Sequence record: OQ540978.1
Length of the DNA stretch: 64,000 bases
Reading direction: 5' to 3' (one strand)
From: Escherichia phage pEC-N1203-2Af.1
Position 1 is the first letter of the stretch. Every line of letters begins with the position of its first letter. Below, in pieces: positions 2,887 to 49,456 of the stretch. Position numbers and translations under genes: made by a program. Below the pieces are notes generated by a model. It made no database searches. It worked only from the letters and a program-made list of their open reading frames with translations, and had not been told where the DNA came from.

Positions 2887-3276
2887 GAGAAGACTAGATG
2901 CTCCGGCATGTGGACTGAGGCCCGTTATAATTCTTTCATCAAGTCAGGGATTCGTTCTCTGACTAGAAAGTGGAAGCCCATGTTCGATGCACTAGCAGAC
3001 GCCAAGACAGAGCAGAAGATTAATCCAAAGACAGGAAGACTGGCAATGCACTTTAAGTGTGCCATGTGTGGTTCTGACCACCCTGTAAAGGATATGGCTA
3101 TTGACCACATAGATCCTATAGTTCCTCTTGACCACGAAGCAACTTGGGATGAAATTATCTCTCGTGCTCTGTGTGAGAAAGAAGGTTTTCAGGTTCTGTG
3201 TAAAGACCCTTGTCATAAGATTAAAACAAAAGAAGAGAATGATGCAAGAAAACAATTCAAAAAAGGAAATGAGTGA
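2875..3276 (+). CDS. HNH endonuclease-like protein
   Basis: ORF 133 aa; CAMCG...DHIDPIV...CKDPCHKIK gives the Cys/His HNH zinc-finger pattern. Confidence 0.5.
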   Translation: MAKSEKTRCSGMWTEARYNSFIKSGIRSLTRKWKPMFDALADAKTEQKINPKTGRLAMHFKCAMCGSDHPVKDMAIDHIDPIVPLDHEATWDEIISRALCEKEGFQVLCKDPCHKIKTKEENDARKQFKKGNE

Positions 3277-37112: not shown

Positions 37113-37268
37113 CTAAGGTGATTGTATACCTTACTCCCTTTTAGCTCGCTGTAGCGCGTTTTAGGCCGCCTATTGTTGCTTTACAAGCCGTTTTCTATGA
37201 TGTATCACGTGCGCCCGCTCTTTTACCTTCCTATAGTGAAAAAGTTTAAAATAATTTGCTTTGCCCTA

Positions 37269-37296
37269 TTGCACTTCCTGAAAGCTCACGTATACT
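37269..37296 (+). promoter_or_regulatory. Candidate sigma70 promoter (TTGCAC-N16-TATACT)
   Basis: -35/-10 hexamers with 16-bp spacer in the ORF-free region. Confidence 0.35.
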
Positions 37297-37332
37297 GATT
37301 TTCATCGGGTACGATGTAAAACATACGCCGCG

Positions 37333-37411
37333 CGCTCTTTAAAAATCAGGCTAGAAAGTGAAAAATACTTGAAAAAGTATTTGACAACTGGAAAGCCTAA
37401 CCTATAATGAG
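37333..37411 (+). repeat. 79-bp direct repeat, copy 1 (promoter module)
   Basis: Identical to 37552-37630; contains CGCTCTTTAA motif, AAATACTT/AAGTATTT inverted repeat, TTGACA and TATAAT. Confidence 0.8.
37381..37408 (+). promoter_or_regulatory. Strong sigma70-type early promoter (TTGACA-N16-TATAAT) with A/T-rich upstream element
   Basis: Consensus -35 at 37381-37386 and consensus -10 at 37403-37408. Confidence 0.6.
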
Positions 37412-37551
37412 CTTAGAAAGACAAGATGACCGCTCAAGTAACTCCCTAGTGAGTGAAGCAAGTCAGACGCAGGCAGGCGGATACCATTCCCCGGAATAAT
37501 CGCAGGTTATCTGATTATCAAATGGTGTTATGGGAGCCATACAGCTTTAAA

Positions 37552-37630
37552 CGCTCTTTAAAAATCAGGCTAGAAAGTGAAAAATACTTGAAAAAGTATT
37601 TGACAACTGGAAAGCCTAACCTATAATGAG
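37552..37630 (+). repeat. 79-bp direct repeat, copy 2 (promoter module)
   Basis: Identical to 37333-37411. Confidence 0.8.
37600..37627 (+). promoter_or_regulatory. Strong sigma70-type early promoter (TTGACA-N16-TATAAT)
   Basis: Consensus -35 at 37600-37605 and -10 at 37622-37627. Confidence 0.6.
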
Positions 37631-37904
37631 CACAAGTCAGCGATGACGTGAAACATCCCCGCTCTTTAAAAATTTATCATCTTGCCCTTTCGCATAGATT
37701 CACGCGAGATAAGGGAAAAGAATAAAAGAAGATGATAAAAAGAGTTTGACAAGCTAACACGACGTGTTAAGCTGTAAATGTAGTAACCGCTCTTTAACAA
37801 TATGGATCATAAGTTTAAGCCTCATCGCTTGATCTTCAATCAAACAAAGCTGATTGATATATCCTCCCAATAGCGGGAACGATGAAAAAAGATTAAAAAA
37901 GCGG

Positions 37905-37933
37905 TTGACAGCGAAAACATCATGGTCCATAAT
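37905..37933 (+). promoter_or_regulatory. Sigma70-type early promoter (TTGACA-N17-CATAAT) with upstream A-tract
   Basis: -35 at 37905-37910, -10 at 37928-37933, preceded by AAAAAAGATTAAAAAAG. Confidence 0.55.
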
Positions 37934-38735
37934 GAGCGTACTCACTAGGCAAATCACCGCTTAAGTGAAAAGCGAAACAACGGCTTACAGTTGCGTAGCG
38001 TGAGAAAGCACGCTGACAGATTTACCGCTCTTTAATAATTTAAACATTCTCATATATCGGTTGAATATGCTGGAAGATAATAACCATCGGAAAGCATACC
38101 AGATAAAACGGCGTAAGGCTCCCTAAAACATCAGGGTAAACAGTTTTACAATCCCTTAACTGGAAACGTCACCACTGATAAGCGGATTCATTGAGTACAC
38201 GCAACGGTTTAAGCTAATCGCCCACGGTTAAGGGTAGCGGCGGCCATCGCTAACACGGTGCTACAGTGAAAGAAACTAATCAGGGCAGACAAGTCCGACG
38301 AATTAACGCCCAATTGAGGGCGGCGGGGGATGGTTAAAGGGTAGCAAATTGCTATTTAACAATAAGGTTTAGTGTGAACGTTTACGATGCGAACGGCTTG
38401 AGATTCGTCTTATGATGAAAGTACATAGTCGGTTTATGTAGTAAACTTGCCGAAAGATATAAAACGCCGGAATGTTAGGCGGTTAGTGACTTTTTCGCAA
38501 TAGTATCCCATAGTGGGCGATGACTAGCGAAAGAGAGCTGATACAAAAGGATAGGCGGGAGCGAAAGCAAAGTAAACGATATTGCCGATGGTTACAGCAA
38601 TGTAATTAAATTGAATCGGACGCACTGCCTTATTGTGATGATTGATCATCGCTATCAGGTCGGCTTCGTTTATAGCGACTAATTAAAGATACCAGATGAA
38701 ACATCACGGATAAGGGAGCGGCAAGGTTAACTCCT

Positions 38736-40586: not shown

Positions 40587-41030
40587 GTGACTAAATCTAA
40601 AATCAGCATGAAAGGCGGGCGTTGTTTTTCTATCTCTGAGCTGGAGAAAGAGAAACCAAAGGCAACCAATCACGTCAGTAAGCGCAGTTTAAAACGTCGT
40701 GCTGCAAAGGCTGAGGCTGAATCTCATATTCCTTCTAGTGTGGCAAAGCGTGTAGGCCATCGCGTTCATCGTGCTGATGCGTTATTGTTAGCCGATCATA
40801 AACGTTCTTTATTAAAGAGCGGGGGAGCTAAAACAGAAGAGGAGAAGAAGTTAGAAATCTTCTGTAATGGTCGCACCCGTGGTAAGCAGAAGTTTAAAGG
40901 TAGCACGAAAGACCCTCAAGCATTCCCTAAAAGTAGCCAGTGTGCGCCTGATGTTTTCTACGCAGACAGTAAACACAAATGGGGCGTTGAGAAATACATT
41001 GACCCCATCAAAGAGGCAAGGGTTAAGTAG
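40587..41030 (+). CDS. Basic hypothetical protein
   Basis: Within ORF 40464-41030; GTG at 40587 has AAGGAA RBS; Lys/Arg-rich. Confidence 0.35.
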   Translation: MTKSKISMKGGRCFSISELEKEKPKATNHVSKRSLKRRAAKAEAESHIPSSVAKRVGHRVHRADALLLADHKRSLLKSGGAKTEEEKKLEIFCNGRTRGKQKFKGSTKDPQAFPKSSQCAPDVFYADSKHKWGVEKYIDPIKEARVK

Positions 41031-41111
41031 TAGGACTATAGACCCCTCTTTTAGTACTATGACGCTCTTTCTGTAGCGTCGTGCCCTCTCCCCCATTTGA
41101 AGCTTCCGCAT

Positions 41112-41135
41112 AGCCGCCTTTGAGCGGCTTTTTGC
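41112..41135 (+). terminator. Rho-independent terminator (first of tandem pair)
   Basis: AGCCGC-CUUUGA-GCGGCU followed by UUUU. Confidence 0.5.
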
Positions 41136-41196
41136 GTTGCTGTAAGTACATTTGCGAGTGTATTTATAGCAACGGTCATGTGTTGCTTTCAGGTTT

Positions 41197-41224
41197 GCCC
41201 CGGCTACGGCTGGGGCTTTTTTAT
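41197..41224 (+). terminator. Rho-independent terminator (UACG tetraloop)
   Basis: GCCCCGGC-UACG-GCUGGGGC followed by UUUUUUAU. Confidence 0.6.
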
Positions 41225-41246
41225 ATCTATTGTATAGGAATTTTCT

Positions 41247-41564
41247 ATGAAAAACCCATTCGAGCTGATAAGTACAGATCCTGTAGAGGTCAACATGCTT
41301 TCATTGAAGTCCAAACTGGTCATCATTCTTACGAAGCTAATTCGTGAGCAGGGTTGGTCGCAGTGTGTTGCCGCAGAGAAGCTAGGTGTTAGCCAGCCAA
41401 GGATTAGTAACCTTATGAATGGACAGCTTTCAAAGTTCTCCGTCGATACATTGTTGGAAATGGTTTTCAAGATGGGGTATAAGCTGGACATGGACTTCAC
41501 TCCACTAAACACCAGATCGCCACTGGCAATATTTGTAAAAGGTGATGGTGTAAGTTACAAATAG
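41247..41564 (+). CDS. XRE-family helix-turn-helix DNA-binding protein
   Basis: ORF 105 aa; GWSQCVAAEKLGVSQPRISNLMNG is a classic XRE/HigA-type HTH. Confidence 0.6.
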   Translation: MKNPFELISTDPVEVNMLSLKSKLVIILTKLIREQGWSQCVAAEKLGVSQPRISNLMNGQLSKFSVDTLLEMVFKMGYKLDMDFTPLNTRSPLAIFVKGDGVSYK

Positions 41565-41677
41565 TAAGATAACACCTATTCCGAAAGGATGGGTGTCACT
41601 ATAAGCATCTTTTCGAGGGGTGTTTATGGAAACAACAAAACAGGAGGTAGCAAGTTCTGATAACAACGGCCCAGCTA

Positions 41678-42067
41678 ATGTTGACATTGACTATTTATTA
41701 TGAGGCAGGGAACCAGCCAACCGCATGTAAGGCTTTAGTTGCGGATACCGTGATAAATAGAATGGCCCAACGAAAACTGACCGCTGAACAGGTGATAAGA
41801 CAAAAGAACCAGTTTGAGTGGATTCCGGTACTATTAAAACAGGAGAAACCTTATAAACGTTATGTAAAGCTGATTCGTGATAAGAATCCGATGACTAAGC
41901 AAGCCATTGGAGAAAGCGAGCGACTTGCTAAACGTGCCCTTAAGAAGAATTATGTTCCGCTGTATAGTGGGACTTACTTTCAGAGTAAGAGCGAAGGGGT
42001 GCCAAAATGGTATGCCAATCCTATGTATTGTGGTGATTTAGTGTTCGATAATAGCTCTAGGGAATAA
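41678..42067 (+). CDS. SleB-like cell-wall hydrolase domain protein (putative)
   Basis: ORF 129 aa; TIYYEAGNQP...ALVADTVINRM...QFEW resembles the Hydrolase_2/SleB motif. Confidence 0.4.
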   Translation: MLTLTIYYEAGNQPTACKALVADTVINRMAQRKLTAEQVIRQKNQFEWIPVLLKQEKPYKRYVKLIRDKNPMTKQAIGESERLAKRALKKNYVPLYSGTYFQSKSEGVPKWYANPMYCGDLVFDNSSRE

Positions 42068-42266
42068 TCACTAGTGCCAGATTTGACAAACTAAATTCCT
42101 TTATAAACCAACCACTTAGTAAATTTATTGAAAAAGATGGTAGTATTCTGGGACTATAGGTAATGCTCTGTATATAGACCCTTTGAAAATTTCTTAGAAA
42201 ATAAGTTTACTAAATATAACTTACTTAAATAATATTACTTTTAATCTCTGATAAAGGGTAAATAAT

Positions 42267-42563
42267 ATGACTTTAGAAGTATATAAATTCCTTTTTGTAA
42301 GCTGTTTAACTATCAGCGTTATAGGATTTATTGTTCTCAGAAACAAAGCAGCAAGCTGGGAGAGAATGTATAGATCTCTAGTCCGAGTGGATGAGATGTA
42401 TAATGAGAAAGTTAAAGCAACTCTTAATGATCTTATCATGCAAGTTGAAGACAGAAACAAGCGTCTTCAGAATCTCAATCATGAAGTGTTGCGCCTTGCT
42501 CGTGCTAATGAAGATTTGCGAGTAGCTATAGCTAAGCAGCAGGAGATTAACAGTGATAATTGA
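42267..42563 (+). CDS. Membrane-anchored coiled-coil protein
   Basis: ORF 98 aa; N-terminal TM FLFVSCLTISVIGFIVL then heptad-like region. Confidence 0.45.
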   Translation: MTLEVYKFLFVSCLTISVIGFIVLRNKAASWERMYRSLVRVDEMYNEKVKATLNDLIMQVEDRNKRLQNLNHEVLRLARANEDLRVAIAKQQEINSDN

Positions 42564-42792
42564 CATGAATCACCCACCGAAGAGGTTAACTCTTGGGGAT
42601 CTAGATTCAGGTGATGTGTTCCAATTCCTTGTGAACTCTGATGATTTTTACATGGCTTCCTGTAGATTTAATAAATCGGATGGTTGTAGAAATTACATGA
42701 ACCTTTCAAACGGTGTGATCTCAGCAGATCGTAATAGTGTGGTTGTTAAGAAGATTAACAATGCTCGACTCACGAACAAGGCGGAAGAATGA
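42553..42792 (+). CDS. Small paralogous early protein, family member 1 (GD[VI]F ... NL[ST]xG motif)
   Basis: ORF 79 aa; LTLGDLDSGDVFQF...YMAS...NLSNGVIS. Confidence 0.5.
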   Translation: MIIDMNHPPKRLTLGDLDSGDVFQFLVNSDDFYMASCRFNKSDGCRNYMNLSNGVISADRNSVVVKKINNARLTNKAEE

Positions 42793-43046
42793 AGATTGAT
42801 CTTGAGATGAAAGACCCAGATCTTACAGTGGGTGATTTAAAGCTTGGAGATGTATTCCAAGTTAAAGCTACACGCGTCGATCATTATTTGGTTGTTAGTT
42901 TATTCACTCCACACGTAACCGAGTCGAACAGGAAAGATTCTGGAACAGTTGTGCTTGGTTTAAGAACTAATCAGGTTATGAAGCTCAATTCAAAACTTCC
43001 TGTAATCCTTATCCCAGATGCAGTAATTACTAATAAAGGTAAGTGA
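42789..43046 (+). CDS. Small paralogous early protein, family member 2
   Basis: ORF 85 aa; LTVGDLKLGDVFQV...YLVVS; ATGA overlap with member 1. Confidence 0.5.
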   Translation: MKIDLEMKDPDLTVGDLKLGDVFQVKATRVDHYLVVSLFTPHVTESNRKDSGTVVLGLRTNQVMKLNSKLPVILIPDAVITNKGK

Positions 43047-43265
43047 ATGGAAATTAAAGTGGTTGATTATCCTAAATATGCAAATGCAGAAGACGTTAAA
43101 GGTGGTGATGTTTTCTCTTACGATAAACGTTTCTGGCTGATGCTAGAAGATAAAACCCCTGATGGTTTGTGTAAGGCTGCTAACTTGAGCAGTGGTTCTG
43201 TTGAAGTCTTCGGTCTATCAACCACTGTTATGCCACGTCCTGATCTGTGTTTATCTCAAAAGTAA
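43047..43265 (+). CDS. Small paralogous early protein, family member 3
   Basis: ORF 72 aa; EDVKGGDVFSY...NLSSGSVEV. Confidence 0.5.
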   Translation: MEIKVVDYPKYANAEDVKGGDVFSYDKRFWLMLEDKTPDGLCKAANLSSGSVEVFGLSTTVMPRPDLCLSQK

Positions 43266-43622
43266 CACCGACTTATAGCCCTTGTGTTTATCAGAGGGCT
43301 ATGTGAGGGTGTTCCTCATTAACTTATTAATTCAGGCATATGCCACACCGCTAGGGAGAGCTTGCTCGAACATCCGGTGCTAGACTAAAACCTGTTAATT
43401 TTCGAAAGACTTTCTAATATGTAGGGGTACATATTGGTTTGGGATTCAGGAGACTTCCTAGGGGTAGGGAGTCTTCACCAGTTGGAATAAGAGATAGCTC
43501 TAGAACCTGAACTCTTAGGCAGAGAAGGTCGGCAATGAGTACGCGGTCAGGATTAGTCTACTGACTAGGGCTATCCCTTATATCAACTGGCAATAATGCC
43601 TCCACTAACAAAGAGAGATAGG

Positions 43623-43763
43623 TATGAAAGTATCAACCAAACGTATGAACCGCCCTGAACGTATGGATGCAGTAGCTAACGGTGCTCTGAAACTGGAAGG
43701 CTTCTGGGTTCATGCAATGTCAGCCATCCGTAACAAGCAAGGCAACTGGACATATGGTAACTA
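43623..43763 (+). CDS. Small hypothetical protein (46 aa)
   Basis: Untracked ORF MKVSTKRMNRPERMD...; follows a 357-nt ORF-free stretch. Confidence 0.25.
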
Positions 43764-43957
43764 ACAAAGAACAAAAAGCGATCTGTCGTTGTGCCCCTTT
43801 CTTCTTTGCAGAAGACGGGGATGTGTTCAGTAAGCTTGCACAAGAGTTGGGATGTTCTCGAACTGGTGCTAAGGTAGTCTTTCATAAGTGGATTATTTCT
43901 TCTGACTCTTATGTGGCTATGAAACTTCGAGAGCTGCAAATACATACTCTTGAATAA
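43754..43957 (+). CDS. Small hypothetical protein
   Basis: Internal ATG of ORF 43712-43957 (MVTNKEQKAI...). Confidence 0.3.
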   Translation: MVTNKEQKAICRCAPFFFAEDGDVFSKLAQELGCSRTGAKVVFHKWIISSDSYVAMKLRELQIHTLE

Positions 43958-43963
43958 AAGAAA

Positions 43964-43992
43964 GGCTGCCTTCGGGTGGCCTTTGTTGTTTT
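43964..43992 (+). terminator. Rho-independent terminator (UUCG tetraloop)
   Basis: GGCUGCC-UUCG-GGUGGCC followed by UUUGUUGUUUU. Confidence 0.65.
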
Positions 43993-44163
43993 AATTAAGG
44001 GACAACTCTTACTTAAACTAACAACGGGTGTATGGTATTGACAGGCATCGGCATGGAACTTGTTACCAACAAGGTTGGCGAATCAAGACCTCTGTGAAGC
44101 TCCGAAGAAATCAAGGCAGGTTCGACTCCTGCTCCCCGACCAAATTAACAATAGGAAGCTCAA

Positions 44164-44340
44164 ATGTCTAAGCAAACAATCAAGAATACACAAGCTGGTT
44201 ACTCTTATGTTAACTCTCCTTGCTGTGGTGCTCGTGTTAATCTGGTTAAAGAAGAGGTTCGTATCGTTCAGCGTGGCGCTACTGTTGTTCGTTCATGCTG
44301 TGTCTGTGGTAATGACATTTTTATCAAAGGTAAAGTATGA
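44164..44340 (+). CDS. Small Cys-rich protein (58 aa)
   Basis: Untracked ORF MSKQTIKNTQAGYSYVNSPCCGARVNL...SCCVCGND; ATGA overlap with next gene; tracked ORF 44060-44356 in another frame judged spurious. Confidence 0.35.
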   Translation: MSKQTIKNTQAGYSYVNSPCCGARVNLVKEEVRIVQRGATVVRSCCVCGNDIFIKGKV

Positions 44341-44561
44341 TTATCATCCGCTCTGAGCCTAGAGATAATACTTTTGGCAGTCTACGTAATGGTGATGTGT
44401 TCTCTCTAGAGATAGATGGGGATACAAAACCTCCTTTATATATGAAGGTTATGCACAGACATGCTATCTGTATAAATAACCCTGAAACAAGATTTACATT
44501 TGATAGAACTTGCCCTGTCAAATACTATCAAGCTACCCTAAATGTTAGGAGAGTAGGATGA
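44337..44561 (+). CDS. Small paralogous early protein, family member 4
   Basis: ORF 74 aa; FGSLRNGDVFSL...YMKV. Confidence 0.5.
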   Translation: MIIIRSEPRDNTFGSLRNGDVFSLEIDGDTKPPLYMKVMHRHAICINNPETRFTFDRTCPVKYYQATLNVRRVG

Positions 44562-44809
44562 AAAACTTCCAAGCTGCACCAATAACTAAAGTAATTGAAG
44601 TTGATGGTGTGATGATGACTGTTCCTCTGAACACTCGTTACATTGCAATTGACAAGATGGGTTATGTATGGGCTTGGAAGATTAAGCCTAGCTATAACGC
44701 ACTGTTTGATGAGTTTGTTTGTACTGGTACTTACAGTCCTACATTCTTGGGTTTATTTGGAGAGTTCGAAGGTCAGTATAAAATCATCACTCTCCCTGCT
44801 TGTGTTTGA
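44558..44809 (+). CDS. Hypothetical protein
   Basis: ORF 83 aa, ATGA overlap with upstream gene. Confidence 0.45.
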   Translation: MKNFQAAPITKVIEVDGVMMTVPLNTRYIAIDKMGYVWAWKIKPSYNALFDEFVCTGTYSPTFLGLFGEFEGQYKIITLPACV

Positions 44810-44816
44810 GGTTAAT

Positions 44817-44978
44817 ATGTTCAAGTGGCTAAAGCGTGTCTTTCATTGTCATGATTGGAAGATTATTAATACTCGCCCTCTGGTCTATACAGATTCAGAT
44901 GGAAACAATGACAAGGGCACACGTTACATTATCCAGTGTAAGGTGTGTGGTGAAGTCAGTCATCGTGATGTAATCTAA
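44817..44978 (+). CDS. Small zinc-ribbon-like protein (53 aa)
   Basis: Untracked ORF MFKWLKRVFHCHDW...IQCKVCGEVSHRDVI; same C-H...C-x2-C pattern as 44987-45196. Confidence 0.35.
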   Translation: MFKWLKRVFHCHDWKIINTRPLVYTDSDGNNDKGTRYIIQCKVCGEVSHRDVI

Positions 44979-44986
44979 GGGGTGTT

Positions 44987-45196
44987 ATGTTCTTCCGTAA
45001 GAAAAAGCCCGAAGATTCTGAGTGTAAACATGAGTGGGTGATCACTGAGAATCTTCAAATCACTCACGCTAAAGACACTCCAGTCGAGAGAAAAGAATCT
45101 CGTGTATCTCGTATCTGTAAACGCTGTTTGAAAATAGAGCAGCATAAAGTTCCCGGTCATATAGGTCATGATGTGGCCTTGCGTATCTTCAGTTAA
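44987..45196 (+). CDS. Small zinc-ribbon-like protein
   Basis: ORF 69 aa; ECKHEW...ICKRCLKIEQHKV. Confidence 0.4.
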   Translation: MFFRKKKPEDSECKHEWVITENLQITHAKDTPVERKESRVSRICKRCLKIEQHKVPGHIGHDVALRIFS

Positions 45197-45214
45197 ACAA
45201 ATTCAGAGGTTAAT

Positions 45215-45523
45215 GTGAAACAAAAGCATTTTATCATCTCAACCTTACTACTAATGACAACCATTGGTATCATCTCTGTTAATAGTGCAGAGATTGGAGT
45301 TAAGTATCAGAGTGTTCAGCAATGCACTCTTAAAGAGCATAGCTTAACTGGTATCAAAGAATCTCATGGTATGGTAAGAGATGGGCTTCTGTTTGTAGAA
45401 ACAACTTCTGGTAATCGTGTCATGGCTACTGATGGCAAAGAAACAAAGTATGCCTACTTCCCTGATACAACAGGCTACTACACTTTTGAAGAGAAGGATT
45501 GTAAGAAGTCTTTCTCTTTATAA
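45215..45523 (+). CDS. Secreted protein with signal peptide
   Basis: ORF 102 aa; MKQKHFIISTLLLMTTIGIISVNSAEIG. Confidence 0.5.
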   Translation: MKQKHFIISTLLLMTTIGIISVNSAEIGVKYQSVQQCTLKEHSLTGIKESHGMVRDGLLFVETTSGNRVMATDGKETKYAYFPDTTGYYTFEEKDCKKSFSL

Positions 45524-45532
45524 AAGAATCAA

Positions 45533-45607
45533 GTCCCTATAGTTAAAAGGATATAACAGATTTCTTCTAAAAATCCATTCTAGGTTCGAGTCCTAGTGGG
45601 GACGCCA
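45533..45607 (+). tRNA. tRNA-Arg (anticodon UCU), CCA encoded
   Basis: Manual cloverleaf: acceptor GUCCCUA/UGGGGAC, D-stem GUUA/UAAC, anticodon stem GAUUU/AAAUC with loop CUUCUAA, T-arm CUAGG-UUCGAGU-CCUAG, discriminator G, CCA. Confidence 0.8.
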
Positions 45608-45626
45608 AATCAAATAGGAGGTGGTT

Positions 45627-45926
45627 ATGAGTTGGGGTGGTGTAATTACCTTAACCTGTATCTTTATCGCCTGTGTAGCTCTTACAGGCTGCGTACAGCA
45701 TCGTCCTGATGGATGGTGTGCAGTAGCAGTGGATGGTATTTGTGTTTCTCGCTGGCATAAAGGTGAGAAGATTCCTTCTGGTGAAATTGATATGCGCTGG
45801 AACGGAGCAACCTGCTCCAATGCTAACCCTTCTATCAACGAAGAGGAGTCTACGCCAGACAATGTTGTGATTGATACAGCGTTGTGGTGTGGTGGCTCTA
45901 CGACTACAACCGGTAAGGAGTGGTAA
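45627..45926 (+). CDS. Putative lipoprotein (candidate superinfection-exclusion factor)
   Basis: ORF 45621-45926; ATG 45627 after AGGAGG; signal peptide ending in lipobox-like LTGC; Cys-rich mature part. Confidence 0.45.
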   Translation: MSWGGVITLTCIFIACVALTGCVQHRPDGWCAVAVDGICVSRWHKGEKIPSGEIDMRWNGATCSNANPSINEEESTPDNVVIDTALWCGGSTTTTGKEW

Positions 45927-45927
45927 T

Positions 45928-46176
45928 ATGACAGCTCATTATTGGAATACAAAGAAGCTTCTTGAAGAGATGGCTGGGGGTAGTAGAGTACAACTAATCT
46001 CTATGCTTCGAATGGATGCTCGCTCTTTACGCTTTCAAGTGAAGATCGGTAACTTCAGTGATGGTCTTTATTATACCTTGAAGGAAAGGATTAAGAAGAC
46101 TCACTTCATCATGTACGGACTCAAACCGAGAACGTACGTTAACTACATGTATTGGGATACATGCTACGATAATTGA
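45928..46176 (+). CDS. Hypothetical protein
   Basis: Within ORF 45871-46176; ATG 45928 (MTAHYW) preceded by TAAGGAG. Confidence 0.4.
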   Translation: MTAHYWNTKKLLEEMAGGSRVQLISMLRMDARSLRFQVKIGNFSDGLYYTLKERIKKTHFIMYGLKPRTYVNYMYWDTCYDN

Positions 46177-46183
46177 GGGTGTT

Positions 46184-46405
46184 ATGATATTCGAAGCCAA
46201 GCAAACATTGCCGGTAGTTCCTTTGTCTACACTTCTTAGTGGGAGTGCTTTTAGACATGATAACGGTTTTTGGATTAAAGGAAACCAAGAGGTTGGAGGA
46301 TATATCACCTGCATCAATATCTGCAATGGTGTTGTTGAGGTAAAGCGTCCAGCCGCTGAAGTAACTCCTCAACCCAATGCAAAGGTTGTAGGTTTGGTAT
46401 ATTAA
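46184..46405 (+). CDS. Small paralogous early protein, family member 5
   Basis: ORF 73 aa; very similar to 46415-46636 (shared FWIK...GYITC.N..NG...P.AKV.PQP.AK..GLVY). Confidence 0.55.
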   Translation: MIFEAKQTLPVVPLSTLLSGSAFRHDNGFWIKGNQEVGGYITCINICNGVVEVKRPAAEVTPQPNAKVVGLVY

Positions 46406-46414
46406 GGAACTTAT

Positions 46415-46636
46415 ATGAAATTAGATTCTAAACAATCCCTTAAAACTGTTGAACTGTCCACACTGCCAAACGGAAGTATCTTTGGTCACGATAAACACTT
46501 CTGGATTAAAACAGACTACTTGAACGATGGGTATATCACCTGTGTCAACCTTTGGAATGGTTCAGTGGATGGTTATCGCCCTAATGCAAAGGTAATCCCT
46601 CAGCCTGATGCAAAGGCTACAGGTTTAGTTTACTAA
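46415..46636 (+). CDS. Small paralogous early protein, family member 6 (tandem duplicate of member 5)
   Basis: ORF 73 aa; near-colinear with 46184-46405. Confidence 0.55.
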   Translation: MKLDSKQSLKTVELSTLPNGSIFGHDKHFWIKTDYLNDGYITCVNLWNGSVDGYRPNAKVIPQPDAKATGLVY

Positions 46637-46645
46637 GGAGTTCAT

Positions 46646-46819
46646 ATGAGCTGTTATGGTGGCGGTGAAGTATATGATGACGATGACATGGAATCCAATG
46701 GTACATGCCCTGACTGTGGGTGTGAGACGTTTGATGGTGTGTCAGTATATCCTGCCTGTAGTTATTCACCAGTGATCTGTAAAACATGCGGAGATCAACC
46801 TTGTGATCAGTCCTGTTAG
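46646..46819 (+). CDS. Small Cys-rich protein (57 aa)
   Basis: Untracked ORF MSCYGGGEVYDDDDMESNGTCPDCGCETF...ICKTCGDQPCDQSC with AAGGAG RBS. Confidence 0.35.
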   Translation: MSCYGGGEVYDDDDMESNGTCPDCGCETFDGVSVYPACSYSPVICKTCGDQPCDQSC

Positions 46820-47036
46820 TATCTTGATTGTCTACTTAATAGGTATGGTGATAGTTTCAGCTCTGATAAAATTCCTCGATGTAAAAGGTAGTGTCGAGTT
46901 CAGAGGGTGGAATAACGAACCAAACTTATCAAAGATAGCGATTATGGTTTTTCTATGGCCCATCGTTGCTGTGATTCTTATATCTCTTGTTTTGTGGGCA
47001 TGGCTGTGGGATATGATTCTTCCCGCAAGAAAGTAA
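46803..47036 (+). CDS. Small membrane protein (2 TM)
   Basis: ORF 77 aa, two hydrophobic segments; start uncertain (GTG). Confidence 0.35.
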   Translation: MISPVSILIVYLIGMVIVSALIKFLDVKGSVEFRGWNNEPNLSKIAIMVFLWPIVAVILISLVLWAWLWDMILPARK

Positions 47037-47252
47037 GAGCTTATCGTTAAGGATTCTTACGAGAGTCCTTTGAGATAGGACTTCAGATCTCCTATCAAAC
47101 TAACATTCACGTAACTAGCCCATAAGGGCGTTACCCTTTAATAACCCAGCCCACTAAGGGGGCGGGAGTTTAGTGCTGGATGAGCATAACGCTTATTCCT
47201 ACAAAGGCAACCGATTGTTAGATCTTACATGCAACATTAATTAATAGGATAA

Positions 47253-47284
47253 GGGAGGATTCGTCCCCTCCCCCTATTTTATTG
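47253..47284 (+). terminator. Hairpin/terminator
   Basis: GGGAGG-AUUCGUCC-CCUCCC followed by CUAUUUUAUUG. Confidence 0.4.
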
Positions 47285-47331
47285 AATCTTTATCTAAGCA
47301 AGTCTTATATAAATGTTTAATTGGAGGATGT

Positions 47332-47643
47332 ATGAAAGCTCGAAGAACTATATGGACTCCGATACAGATTGAAAATCTTCGGAGACTAATCAAAGAGTAC
47401 TCTGTTCAAGAGGTTGCTCAGATTATGAATGTAACGGAGAATGCAGTTAATACAGCTTGTACTAAGTTCGGTATATCAAGAGCTGTACTCCGAGTTAAGT
47501 GGTCTAAAGAAGAAGACCAGTTCCTTATCCGTAATGCTGGGTTTATGTCTATTCAGAGAATGGCTGACATGCTCGGTAGAAGTTATGCTGCTGTACAGAA
47601 CAGAGCATGTATGCACCTTAACATTAGTCTAAAACTTAAATAG
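47332..47643 (+). CDS. DNA-binding protein with two HTH-like repeats (putative transcription regulator)
   Basis: ORF 103 aa; two similar segments (WTPIQIENLRRLIKEYSVQEVAQIM... and WSKEEDQFLIRNAGFMSIQRMADMLGRS). Confidence 0.45.
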   Translation: MKARRTIWTPIQIENLRRLIKEYSVQEVAQIMNVTENAVNTACTKFGISRAVLRVKWSKEEDQFLIRNAGFMSIQRMADMLGRSYAAVQNRACMHLNISLKLK

Positions 47644-47651
47644 GAATCAAT

Positions 47652-47897
47652 ATGAAGATCATCCCAAAGAAAAAGGATAATACGGTACGATTGGAAACAA
47701 TCATTCCCGGAAACCCTTTCGTGGTTCAGCACGGAAGTGCCTCTCCTCAATATTATATGAGGGTTGAAAATGCATCTGGTAACATCCGTATAGCCAGTGG
47801 TTGGATTCCTGTAGTGAATCTATCCACTGGAGTATTAGCTGTTAAAGGTGCTGATGAACAGGTTGAAATGATTCGTATGTCAGTGGTTCAGGAGTAG
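47652..47897 (+). CDS. Small paralogous early protein, family member 7
   Basis: ORF 81 aa; LETIIPGNPFVV...YYMRV...NLSTGVLAV. Confidence 0.5.
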   Translation: MKIIPKKKDNTVRLETIIPGNPFVVQHGSASPQYYMRVENASGNIRIASGWIPVVNLSTGVLAVKGADEQVEMIRMSVVQE

Positions 47898-47899
47898 GT

Positions 47900-48142
47900 A
47901 TGAGCACAATACATATCAAAGTTCATCATGAAGAAGAAAAGAAACTCTTTGTTAAAGATCTATCGATCGCTGATATCTTCACTTTAAAAGAAGATGATAA
48001 TCAGATCATCTATTTGATGATGCCTGTGACTGGAGGGTATCGAAGGGCTGTTTGTTTGGGTACAGGTGTGCCCCGTCCTGTTGCTGATACTCTTGAAGTT
48101 GGTGAGAAGTTTAGTAAGGCTGAAATTATCTTAACTCCATAG
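47900..48142 (+). CDS. Small paralogous early protein, family member 8
   Basis: ORF 80 aa; LSIADIFTL...YLMMP...LGTGVPRPV. Confidence 0.5.
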   Translation: MSTIHIKVHHEEEKKLFVKDLSIADIFTLKEDDNQIIYLMMPVTGGYRRAVCLGTGVPRPVADTLEVGEKFSKAEIILTP

Positions 48143-48150
48143 GAAAATAA

Positions 48151-48267
48151 ATGAGACGTAAAGCATATTCTTATGACGATATGATTAACCAGAAAGGCTT
48201 CGGTCAACGACAGCCTGATGGTTCAATTATCTGGTTCGTAAATGGACAGAAAAAGGTAGCTAAATAA
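48151..48267 (+). CDS. Small hypothetical protein (38 aa)
   Basis: Untracked ORF MRRKAYSYDDMINQKGFG... Confidence 0.25.
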   Translation: MRRKAYSYDDMINQKGFGQRQPDGSIIWFVNGQKKVAK

Positions 48268-48373
48268 GCCCTCTTCTCTCCTCCTTTTAGTACTATGACG
48301 CCTCTCTGTGGGCGGCCCAATTTGCGTAGGGAATTCCCTCTACGCAGCCATAACTTTTTAAGGAATTTCCCCT

Positions 48374-48607
48374 ATGTCTAAAGTAAGCGCAATCGATGCA
48401 ATCCGTCAACCGTTCCAGTTCCAATCCAAATCAACTCAAACCTTCAGTGAGCCTAAGCAAATTCGCTTGGGTGGCACAGAGAAGACTGTATTTGATCTGG
48501 CTAAAAACAAAAGCGTTACCGTAGTTGATGGTGGCACTCTGGTTAACGTTTCCCATCGCATCCGCACTGGCAAAACTGCCAAAGATCGTGCCAAGAAAGG
48601 TGAGTGA
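48374..48607 (+). CDS. Hypothetical protein
   Basis: ORF 77 aa. Confidence 0.45.
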   Translation: MSKVSAIDAIRQPFQFQSKSTQTFSEPKQIRLGGTEKTVFDLAKNKSVTVVDGGTLVNVSHRIRTGKTAKDRAKKGE

Positions 48608-48846
48608 TGAAAATAGGGAAACCGGCTGATGGTATAATAAAGATTAGTGATATATCTATTGGGGAAGTTTTCTCAGCAGAGCACTTTTCAAGTTACTACA
48701 TGAAAATCCCTAACACTAAAGTAGAGGGTTGCATCATTCCTGCCAACGCAGTTAACCTGAACACAGGCCATCTGTCTGCATTCAAACCTGATTTACAGGT
48801 TACTGAAATCCGAGATGCCTATCTCGCCTTTGGTGGGGATAAATAG
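48604..48846 (+). CDS. Small paralogous early protein, family member 9
   Basis: ORF 80 aa; ISDISIGEVFSA...YYMKI...NLNTGHLSAF. Confidence 0.5.
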   Translation: MMKIGKPADGIIKISDISIGEVFSAEHFSSYYMKIPNTKVEGCIIPANAVNLNTGHLSAFKPDLQVTEIRDAYLAFGGDK

Positions 48847-48850
48847 AGTG

Positions 48851-49066
48851 ATGATAACACTTGTGTCAGTAGTTTACAGATTACACTATCGTCTAGATAA
48901 AGGAAAATCCTATAAATGCAAGAGTAAGACAGGGAATCGATGCTCTGTAGAAAATAACTCTGGTCAATGGGTGGATGTACCTTGTTGTTGGTTCAGGAAA
49001 GATTTGACTAGCAAAGAGATTGACGAAATTCTTAGTGATGATTTTGTAAAATCAGGTGATTTTTAG
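48851..49066 (+). CDS. Small Cys-rich hypothetical protein
   Basis: Within ORF 48815-49066; ATG 48851; CKSKTGNRCSVENNSGQWVDVPCCW. Confidence 0.35.
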   Translation: MITLVSVVYRLHYRLDKGKSYKCKSKTGNRCSVENNSGQWVDVPCCWFRKDLTSKEIDEILSDDFVKSGDF

Positions 49067-49303
49067 TTGTAGTAACGCCTATAGCCTTCCCTCCGGAGGG
49101 CTATGTGAGTTATTCTGACTCAACTAACCTAATCTTAATATATTTCCCGTATGGGGCCGATGCTAGGGCGAGGAGTGTTCCTCAAACATCCGTCGGATAG
49201 ATATTTTAAGAGCAGGTTATCCACAGATATTGGGTAATATCTTTTTGGATTTAAAGCTTGGCTCTTTTCGGAGAGTCCTTTTTTAAATTCAATGAGAGGA
49301 AAT

Positions 49304-49456
49304 ATGTCTAAATTAGATTTAAAACTGCTAGCAGCAGCGGTAGTGATTTGTGCACTAGCACTGGTAACGCAGAGAACATCTGGATTTATTCAGTGTTTCT
49401 TTTCTGGGCAATCCACTTATCAGTGGATTATTGACGAGTGTAAACAACAGGAGTAA
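49304..49456 (+). CDS. Small signal-peptide/membrane protein (50 aa)
   Basis: Untracked ORF MSKLDLKLLAAAVVICALALV... with GAGAGGA RBS. Confidence 0.3.
   Translation: MSKLDLKLLAAAVVICALALVTQRTSGFIQCFFSGQSTYQWIIDECKQQE

Follow-up and report, generated by a model that had tools for sequence, protein, structure and literature searches.

Within a stretch of 64,000 nucleotides (nt) of Escherichia phage pEC-N1203-2Af.1 (accession OQ540978.1), hereafter called the window, two intergenic spacers of the early operon carry paralogous copies of one structured RNA domain. Spacer A (43266-43623, 358 nt) separates the phi32_113 and phi32_112 homologues and harbours copy A of the domain (43262-43405, + strand, 143 nt), and spacer B (49067-49303) separates the phi32_91 and phi32_90 homologues and harbours copy B (49072-49226, + strand, 155 nt). 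The domain forms a conserved structure on the sense strand, and copy B is followed by an intrinsic terminator and then by a ribosome binding site (RBS), in an order that is itself conserved. Judging from this anatomy alone, we tentatively favour the reading that the domain is a cis-acting RNA which controls termination or read-through, and we give this reading somewhat less than an even chance; the identity of its partner and the effect on termination are what we infer.

The paralogy of the two copies was established with a covariance model (R1), which was built from B homologues alone and contains no A sequence. When the 64-kb window was scanned with R1, copy A was found at full length with a score of 50.4 bits (E=2.4e-9), and since a model made only of B sequences recovers A, the two are paralogues. 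No third copy was detected in the window; all the other R1 matches had E-values of at least 0.0015 and fell only on the reverse strand of the palindromic helix P1. A sequence-only reading of the window had proposed that the regions 43275-43400 and 49080-49210 are homologous; the homology is borne out, but the units are larger than these limits, 143 and 155 nt respectively. The words GCTAGGG...ACATCCG, which that reading also listed as common to both regions, occur in this combination exactly twice in the window, where 0.00 occurrences are expected. Another block that it considered shared, GTGTTCCTCA, is indeed present in both copies, but it is not positionally homologous: in A it forms the loop and the 3' arm of P2 (43309-43318), and in B the loop and the 3' arm of P6 (49176-49185), a loop that varies among the other B homologues (ACAC, AUAC, AUAA and others).

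The domain folds into six helices, with two 5' hairpins (P1 and P2) ahead of a three-way junction, from which emerges a P5-P6 arm bearing a 7x7 internal loop, CUAGGG(M)/(R)AACAUC. In copy A, P1 spans 43275-43302 and P2 43304-43318, the closing helix P3 pairs 43319-43323 with 43394-43398, P4 occupies 43335-43344, P5 pairs 43346-43350 with 43375-43379, and P6 (43358-43367) caps the arm; the internal loop consists of CTAGGGA (43351-43357) opposite GAACATC (43368-43374). In copy B, for which the fold was derived from the alignment of 13 homologues using RNAalifold, P1 spans 49081-49104 and P2 49106-49122, the closing helix is split into P3a (49125-49130/49214-49219) and P3b (49134-49138/49206-49210), and P4 (49146-49155), P5 (49157-49162/49191-49196) and P6 (49170-49183) follow, with the internal loop formed by CTAGGGC (49163-49169) opposite AAACATC (49184-49190). 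The TATAGCC...GGCTATG hairpin with a conserved stem and different loops, on which the sequence-only reading was centred, is thus present in both regions (43275-43302 and 49081-49104) and corresponds to helix P1 of this larger domain. The suggestion that this hairpin could be a terminator has to be abandoned: P1 lacks a U tract, is followed by GUGAG... and was not called by the terminator scan, and the real terminator is a separate element further downstream (see below).

The structure is supported by covariation at two depths. The B alignment comprises 13 homologues that are 68-98% identical and come from two phage families, the 7-11-like Salmonella phages being 68-73% identical to the window. 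In this B-only alignment (MAFFT-based, with an RNAalifold consensus), 98.4% of the pair cells are standard and 11 pairs show double changes, and when the 3' partners were moved by 1-3 columns in a slid-register control, only 32-48% of the cells could pair. In the family alignment of 31 distinct sequences, including A, B and a Flavobacterium copy, 96.7% of the pair cells are standard, and double changes are seen at 26 of the 39 pairs versus 4-10 pairs in the slid-register controls; none of 500 shuffles reached this level of pairing and double changes. The alignment of the 31 sequences was fitted to the model and hence leans toward the structure, and the independent MAFFT-based count for B agrees with it. 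The earlier view that a conserved stem with varying loops points to a functional RNA structure is therefore upheld by the very alignment and covariance analysis that had been suggested for it. At the same time, the domain is more elaborate than a processing hairpin or a terminator needs, and a processing site and a small RNA stay on as possible rival explanations, which are weighed below.

The most strongly conserved part of the domain is the internal loop CUAGGG/AACAUC, which is invariant in all 31 sequences, its twelve fixed bases being the same from the coliphages to the Flavobacterium contig. The position closing this loop against P6 is occupied by A.G in 20 of the sequences, by C.A in ten and by A.A in one, and the switch occurs within each clade. 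Such a covarying loop closure indicates, as read from the alignment, that a specific non-canonical pair belongs to a defined tertiary motif. Furthermore, U.G pairs are fixed in P1, P3b and P5, and as G.U and U.G pairs fit the + strand only, the structure must be formed on the sense strand. The domain starts with GTAAC, which usually includes the TAA stop codon of the upstream gene, as it does in copy A (TAA at 43263-43265), and P1 begins 8-12 nt past the upstream stop codon. The corresponding RTAAC word ahead of P1 (43262-43266 and 49072-49076) includes the upstream TAA in A as well as in the B copies of Suseptimavirus, phage 4E8 and the 7-11-like phages. A terminating ribosome would thus cover the 5' arm of P1, a hint that translation of the upstream gene is coupled to the folding of the domain.

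The window is closely related to the phiEco32-like coliphages, with both regions matching about 95-100 phage records at 80-99% identity (Kuravirus, with Suseptimavirus more distant). The search of related phages that the sequence-only reading had called for found both elements conserved, and the lack of conservation which it had named as contrary evidence was not seen. Members of Kuravirus and Suseptimavirus carry both copies, and the 7-11-like phages carry B only. The family search combined core-pattern scans of viral, genome and metagenome collections with a subsequent R1 screen, and the tighter scans added only Kuravirus-like and 7-11-like sequences and one distant member, located at 3020-3170 of a contig (L149) from a Flavobacterium metagenome-assembled genome (E=5e-9), in which the sequences of P1 and P5 have diverged and the loop core is identical. 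This contig contains a run of small open reading frames (ORFs) and matches to phage protein families, including a 'decoy of host sigma70' or Srd-like family, and therefore looks like a phage early region; it had no match in the phage collection, and its downstream region has no protein in common with that of the window. Unrelated viral contigs that contain both heptamers, 831 kb in total, served as a negative control and yielded zero R1 matches. A loose scan of viral contigs for GCTAGGG-N8-30-ACATCCG returned 120 loci, mostly due to chance, none of which fits R1, and pattern matches without an R1 match in five soil contigs (L168, L169, L175, L176 and L181) were likewise treated as chance. In six further contigs, the freshwater contigs L147, L148, L162, L167 and L180 and also L157, GCTAGGGGGAG...CTCAAACATCCG occurs with plausible flanking pairing and is undetected by R1; these are either chance matches within coding sequence, which is how we have treated the five freshwater ones, or very distant relatives.

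No known family accounts for the domain. At gathering thresholds, Rfam 15 found only a tRNA-Arg in the whole window, and permissive scans, run on 40900-49400 and on each of the two copies, gave nothing above 24 bits, far under the gathering scores; membership in the riboswitch, EAR, self-cleaving ribozyme, small RNA and tRNA-like families was accordingly rejected. Existing records leave the two spacers mostly unannotated or have them crossed by short hypothetical ORFs. Coding of a small protein in A or B was rejected, as the only ORFs have 31-33 codons with TTG or GTG starts and homologues differ by indels of 4, 6 and 7 nt. The ORFs flanking the domain copies have no match in Pfam. Our literature search found no description of the domain, and a looser search on phiEco32 non-coding RNA returned no phiEco32 paper among its top results.

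The intrinsic terminator behind copy B lies at 49260-49283 on the + strand, about 35 nt past the domain, and consists of a GGCUCU-loop-AGAGUCC hairpin (49260-49277 in the terminator scan) with one bulged U, followed by U6. Its stem, bulged U and U6 tract are kept across Kuravirus, Suseptimavirus and the 7-11-like phages and its loop varies; the records of phages 4E8 and SU7 annotate the equivalent element as a terminator. Directly after it come the RBS (GAGAGG, 49294-49299) and the ATG (49304) of the phi32_90 homologue, and the order of domain, terminator, RBS and ATG is kept across two phage families. Since the RBS and the ATG fall within 20 nt of the terminator, there is no room for a promoter between them. 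In addition, neither a gp36-type (phage sigma) TAATGTATA promoter nor a consensus or strong sigma70 match was found on the + strand from 49.3 to 64 kb. Within or just ahead of A or B, the sole promoter candidate lies at 49115-49144; it is a weak match (9/12) that relatives do not share, and was rejected.

The early operon occupies the + strand from about 37 kb on, with a run of small genes equivalent to phi32_124 through phi32_86. It is preceded by a gene-free spacer of about 1.9 kb, in which we found three consensus sigma70 promoters on the + strand, at 37381-37408 (12/12), 37600-37627 (12/12) and 37905-37933 (11/12). These match the description of phage SU10, for which 'three promoters in the spacer' were reported (PMC4281155). 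In phage 7-11, primer extension has placed the start of early transcription at two right-end promoters, and the transcripts span almost half of the genome; its authors state that the antitermination strategy 'remains to be defined' (PMC8948821). Copy B and its terminator fall within the early transcript so described, and thus the polymerase must pass that terminator.

According to our favoured reading, the domain would be transcribed within the long early RNA of the sense strand, and its CUAGGG/AACAUC loop would probably serve, along with the UAGGG(G)UA loops that resemble it in the hairpins nearby, as a specific docking surface for a partner, for which RNA polymerase, an elongation factor and a phage early protein are the candidates. 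The RNA would act in cis on the polymerase that transcribed it. At copy B, the polymerase would pass, perhaps conditionally, the terminator about 35 nt downstream, and this read-through would serve the about 15 kb of + strand genes in the remainder of the window, which are without a promoter-like site of their own. Copy A would be a duplicate of the sensor with different outputs, namely a long hairpin of the RNase III type and a tail that may mask an RBS. We lean toward a device similar to the put RNA of phage HK022 or the eps-associated RNA (EAR), or one assisted by a protein, over a metabolite switch, because there is no conserved antiterminator pairing, the downstream genes differ and A lacks a terminator. 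A bolder version, in which the domain founds a new class of processive antiterminator RNA, related neither in sequence nor in fold to put and EAR, that docks on the elongating host polymerase, alone or with a phage early protein recognising the UAGGG loops, strikes us as doubtful.

Several observations weigh against control of termination by the domain. Copy A has no terminator directly behind it, the next one (43961-43992) lying about 560 nt downstream behind two small ORFs, and none is detectable behind the Flavobacterium copy. The terminators at 41112, 41197 and 47253 are located upstream of A or B or have no domain before them, so that the domain cannot be the sole read-through device of the operon, and five boxA-like CGCTCTTTAA words near the early promoters provide a separate candidate signal. 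No conserved alternative pairing competes with the B terminator, which speaks against the switch of a classic riboswitch, and this terminator may simply be leaky.

The five boxA-like words are exact + strand copies found at 37216-38362 of the window, where 0.1 copies are expected; some precede a -35 element and others come after a start site. At 37788 the copy has the sequence CGCTCTTTAACAA, the very boxA of P22 nutL, and it also agrees at 12 of 13 positions with the boxA of the rrn operons, TGCTCTTTAACAA. The copy at 38026 comes after a small hairpin, in a boxB-boxA-like order. These words are kept in Kuravirus and Suseptimavirus and are absent from the 7-11-like locus. Their presence at 37.3-38.0 kb suggests Nus-factor (boxA-type) antitermination of the early transcripts, and our literature search found no paper combining phiEco32 with boxA.

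All the 358 nt of spacer A are structured, beyond the first 130 nt, and the remaining hairpins show compensatory changes between Kuravirus and Suseptimavirus. Hairpin H1 (43414-43437, +), formed by CUAAUAUGUA and UACAUAUUGG around an invariant G-rich loop GUAGGGGUA, shows a compensatory change between AU and GC; a short and variable AU-rich hairpin with a GGG loop just after domain B (49225-49242) is analogous to it. Hairpin H2 (43449-43476, +) has an invariant loop CUAGGGGUAGG on a covarying stem with double changes at three pairs. A long, irregular hairpin H3 (43478-43590, +) follows, and behind it come a small hairpin GGCAAUAAUGCC (43589-43600, +) and a tail (43601-43626, +) with CCUCC, a spacer, the RBS AAGAGAGA and the ATG (43624) of the phi32_112 homologue. 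In the RNAalifold consensus the CUCC pairs with this RBS, the pairs being invariant and covariation thus neutral on them. The word TAGGG occurs five times in the 358 nt of spacer A (43352, 43422, 43459, 43465 and 43566), mostly in hairpin or internal loops, versus 26 times on the entire + strand, where about 50 occurrences are expected from composition. Such clustering of UAGGG suggests a repeated motif with a partner binding several sites.

The five UAGGG motifs offered in the loops of A also fit a role in trans, in which the domain and the G-loop hairpins would be cut from the early transcript to give a stable non-coding RNA, which could titrate a host or phage RNA-binding protein through its UAGGG loops or base-pair through its invariant single-stranded segments. 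We regard this as unlikely on balance, yet as a rival to be reckoned with. Copy B starts 5 nt past a stop codon and ends in a U-tailed terminator, which is the typical anatomy of a small RNA derived from a 3' untranslated region; the genes after the domain differ by phage family, as expected for a function independent of the neighbours; and in a 7-11-like phage this region also has a gene for a protein of the ProQ/FinO family. On the other hand, A has no signal for the formation of a 3' end, no promoter was found for A or B, and the domain is large and rigidly conserved compared with the known small RNAs that act by seed pairing. Nor was any likeness to a host RNA found: A has no match in 5,426 E. 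coli genomes, and B matches E. coli only marginally, over 42 nt upstream of nrdD (E=5e-3).

Hairpin H3 was predicted both as the minimum-free-energy structure and by RNAalifold, with double changes at 2 pairs, and its shape, irregular and with about 25 base pairs (bp) at its base, resembles in the model that of an RNase III substrate. Its tip carries a 67-nt module (43501-43567, +), which is absent from Suseptimavirus, as seen from an indel in the alignment. By BLAST, P22-like Salmonella phages have a segment with about 80% identity to the module, placed after nutL (boxA/boxB) and before the RBS of gene 24; this segment (1501-1567 in both L122 and L123) follows PL-nutL with its boxA CGCTCTTTAAC and boxB GCGCTGACAAAGCGC, and in phage SE1 the module likewise forms the tip of a hairpin of about 110 nt. 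By sequence the module looks like one that was horizontally exchanged between Kuravirus and the P22-like phages. The position of this long hairpin between nutL and gene 24 is that of the RNase III hairpin of the lambda N leader.

Another explanation is that the spacers serve as punctuation of a polycistronic early mRNA, with RNase III or RNase E sites for processing and with protective hairpins between the cistrons, in the manner of the five RNase III sites of the T7 early region or of the RNase III hairpin in the leader of lambda N. In favour of it, the long hairpin that separates nutL from gene 24 in the P22-like phages ends in the same tip module as H3, P1 at 8-12 nt past the stop codon is well placed for protecting a 3' end, and several such structured spacers are found in the early operon. 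However, a processing hairpin has no need of a three-way junction, of twelve invariant loop bases or of a covarying non-canonical pair, and the helices of the shared domain (3-10 bp, with 9-10 bp in P1) are too short for RNase III. Processing accounts better for H3 than for the shared domain, and we think this explanation rather unlikely.

The sequence downstream of B would also accommodate a metabolite riboswitch, with the domain as the aptamer and the B terminator as the expression platform, controlling a cluster of amidoligase, glutamine amidotransferase and ATP-grasp genes. An aptamer-like domain, a terminator and an RBS follow each other here in the classic order, the invariant internal loop could be a ligand pocket, and the Kuravirus operon downstream of B does encode COOH-NH2 ligase and amidotransferase enzymes. 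Nevertheless, the best partner of the 5' arm of the terminator maps elsewhere in each homologue, so that there is no conserved antiterminator pairing, and A lacks such an expression platform. Furthermore, the first genes downstream are inconsistent between families, since Kuravirus has one for a small membrane protein and the 7-11-like phages have one for a cell-wall hydrolase; the small ORFs behind A and behind the Flavobacterium copy are unrelated; and no Rfam riboswitch family matches. We therefore judge this explanation to be improbable.

The tail of B, GGTTATCCACAG, contains a perfect DnaA-box word, TTATCCACA, at 49217-49225, which also falls within the marginal match upstream of nrdD; the window has 3 exact copies of the word on both strands together versus about 0.5 expected. 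Its invariance in all 19 B sequences, those of the 7-11-like phages included, is the sole basis for viewing the element as a DNA-level signal for DnaA binding, replication or priming (a single-strand initiation site), of the kind reportedly found at the A site of plasmid R6K, where hairpins of single-stranded DNA with a DnaA box can assemble primosomes. We consider this very improbable, since the box is missing from both A and the Flavobacterium copy, no more than 3 of its 9 bases are part of a helix, the box is single rather than part of a cluster, the G.U strand asymmetry and the orientation co-linear with transcription fit RNA, and the match near nrdD is the only similarity to E. coli.

The early operon carries several structured spacers besides A and B. 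The sequence-only reading had noticed a 17-mer, TTTTAGTACTATGACGC, near 41050 and 48279, each time just after a gene end. It occurs exactly twice in the window versus 0.01 expected and extends to an 18-mer, CTTTTAGTACTATGACGC, at 41048-41065 and 48284-48301, each copy lying 18-19 nt past a stop codon; the recurrence after gene ends is thus correct, and the second position was a few bases off. Far from being an isolated word, the 18-mer comprises the 3' end of a C/U-rich tract and the 5' arm of a small GC hairpin (GACGCY...RGCGUC), and both copies are syntenic in Suseptimavirus with 2-4 substitutions. The first module (41048-41080, +) has the C/U-rich tract ahead of a hairpin of GACGCU (41061-66) and AGCGUC (41075-80), and is followed by two tandem intrinsic terminators (41112-41135 and 41197-41223, +). 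The second (48284-48346, +) has the tract CCCUCUUCUCUCCUCC ahead of a hairpin of CGCC (48299-302) and GGCG (48311-314), with a second hairpin at 48323-48346. In Suseptimavirus and 4E8 a U tract comes after the hairpin, which is then terminator-like, and the equivalent of the second copy is annotated as a terminator in 4E8; the hairpin in this window has no terminator-like U tract. By its sequence, the 18-mer module is a second, smaller paralogous intergenic module unrelated to the A/B domain, and it is probably also tied to termination. A lambdoid nut site, in which both copies should have a boxA word (CGCUCUUUA) ahead of a boxB hairpin, was considered for it and rejected: the first copy has CGCUCUUU, which falls inside the hairpin, and the second has CGCCUCUCU; the true boxA-like words are those at 37.3-38.0 kb.

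Two other sites in the same part of the operon deserve mention. Just past the terminator at 43961-43992, a sequence resembling the 3' half of a tRNA (44113-44146, +) contains a T-arm GGCAGGTTCGACTCCTGC and then TCCCCGACCA with an encoded CCA; it was called neither by ARAGORN nor by Rfam, and no matching 5' acceptor strand was found. A tRNA gene in decay and a processing signal that mimics a tRNA are two possible explanations for it, the genuine tRNA-Arg(UCU) being located at 45533-45607. The spacer at 47037-47331 (295 nt) contains several hairpins and a terminator, GGGAGGATTCGTCCCCTCCC then CCTATTTTAT (47253-47272), which recurs nearly unchanged in a 7-11-like Salmonella phage (25557-25575 in L125) and is followed by a possible promoter at about 47281.

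Structured RNAs that act in cis within the early operons of phages are known in general, and what is new here is the fold, the invariant loop and the arrangement in two copies. Phages phiEco32 and 7-11 are models for transcription programmes driven by sigma factors, and we found in the literature no explanation of how the host polymerase traverses the many terminators of their early operons. A strongly covarying domain that is absent from Rfam and has one copy before a terminator that must be passed is a concrete candidate for this task, which can be tested by mutation. If the domain is an antiterminator, it would explain the early transcripts of tens of kb that run through several terminators in the phiEco32-like and 7-11-like phages and would supply the antitermination strategy missing for phage 7-11, and the Flavobacterium copy would mean that the device works across bacterial phyla. 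The presence of the same core in a Flavobacterium phage-like contig shows in any case that the fold is not a local curiosity. Even if the proposed mechanism is wrong, and the domain acts as a sponge or in processing, it constitutes a new and well-defined family of phage RNAs, for which about 30 distinct members are at hand and databases can be searched with the existing model.

Among known systems, orphan riboswitch candidates share with the domain a covarying, conserved, aptamer-like fold followed by an intrinsic terminator and an RBS, and differ from it in that we see no conserved antiterminator helix, no consistent class of downstream genes, and a second copy without a terminator. The early region of T7 has five RNase III sites, and the lambda N leader contains an RNase III hairpin. 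As in T7, the host polymerase makes a long early transcript whose cistrons are separated by structured spacers, but each T7 site is one irregular hairpin of about 60 nt, whereas the A/B domain is multi-branched with an invariant loop core; an irregular hairpin of at least about 20 bp, as expected for RNase III, is found only in H3 and its P22-like counterpart. The N-gene leaders of lambda and P22 resemble spacer A in the 67-nt tip, which is about 80% identical to the tip of the post-nutL hairpin in SE1 and ST64T, and the boxA-like words near the early promoters of this phage are a further likeness. The shared domain, on the other hand, has no counterpart in the P22-like leaders (no R1 match), neither a boxB nor an N-like gene was identified in this phage, and the A copies of Suseptimavirus lack the 67-nt module. 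The EAR of Bacillales is likewise a structured intergenic RNA of about 120-150 nt in a long operon, and is proposed to promote read-through of downstream terminators; it differs in that its Rfam model does not match, it belongs to another host group, and in our case B has a terminator directly after it.

The put RNAs of phage HK022 (putL and putR) act in cis by binding the zinc-binding domain of the beta-prime subunit of RNA polymerase and suppress pausing and termination without protein factors. To our knowledge, no N- or Q-type protein is known in the phiEco32-like group. Homology to put was rejected, since in local alignments of putL (NC_002166) with A, B and the 67-nt module the similarity did not go beyond an 8-mer or a stretch of 13 nt and was not significant (p=0.19-0.43 from shuffles). 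The put RNA consists of two adjacent stem-loops of about 70 nt in total that adopt a V shape (PMC9378689), compared with 143-155 nt, six helices and a three-way junction in the A/B domain. The put sites adjoin a promoter, whereas A and B are located between genes about 5.5 and 11 kb downstream. What the two systems have in common is a pair of paralogous structured RNAs in a phage early unit, free of switch-type alternative pairing and placed upstream of intrinsic terminators to be passed, with B lying 35 nt and A about 560 nt upstream of a terminator within the early transcript.

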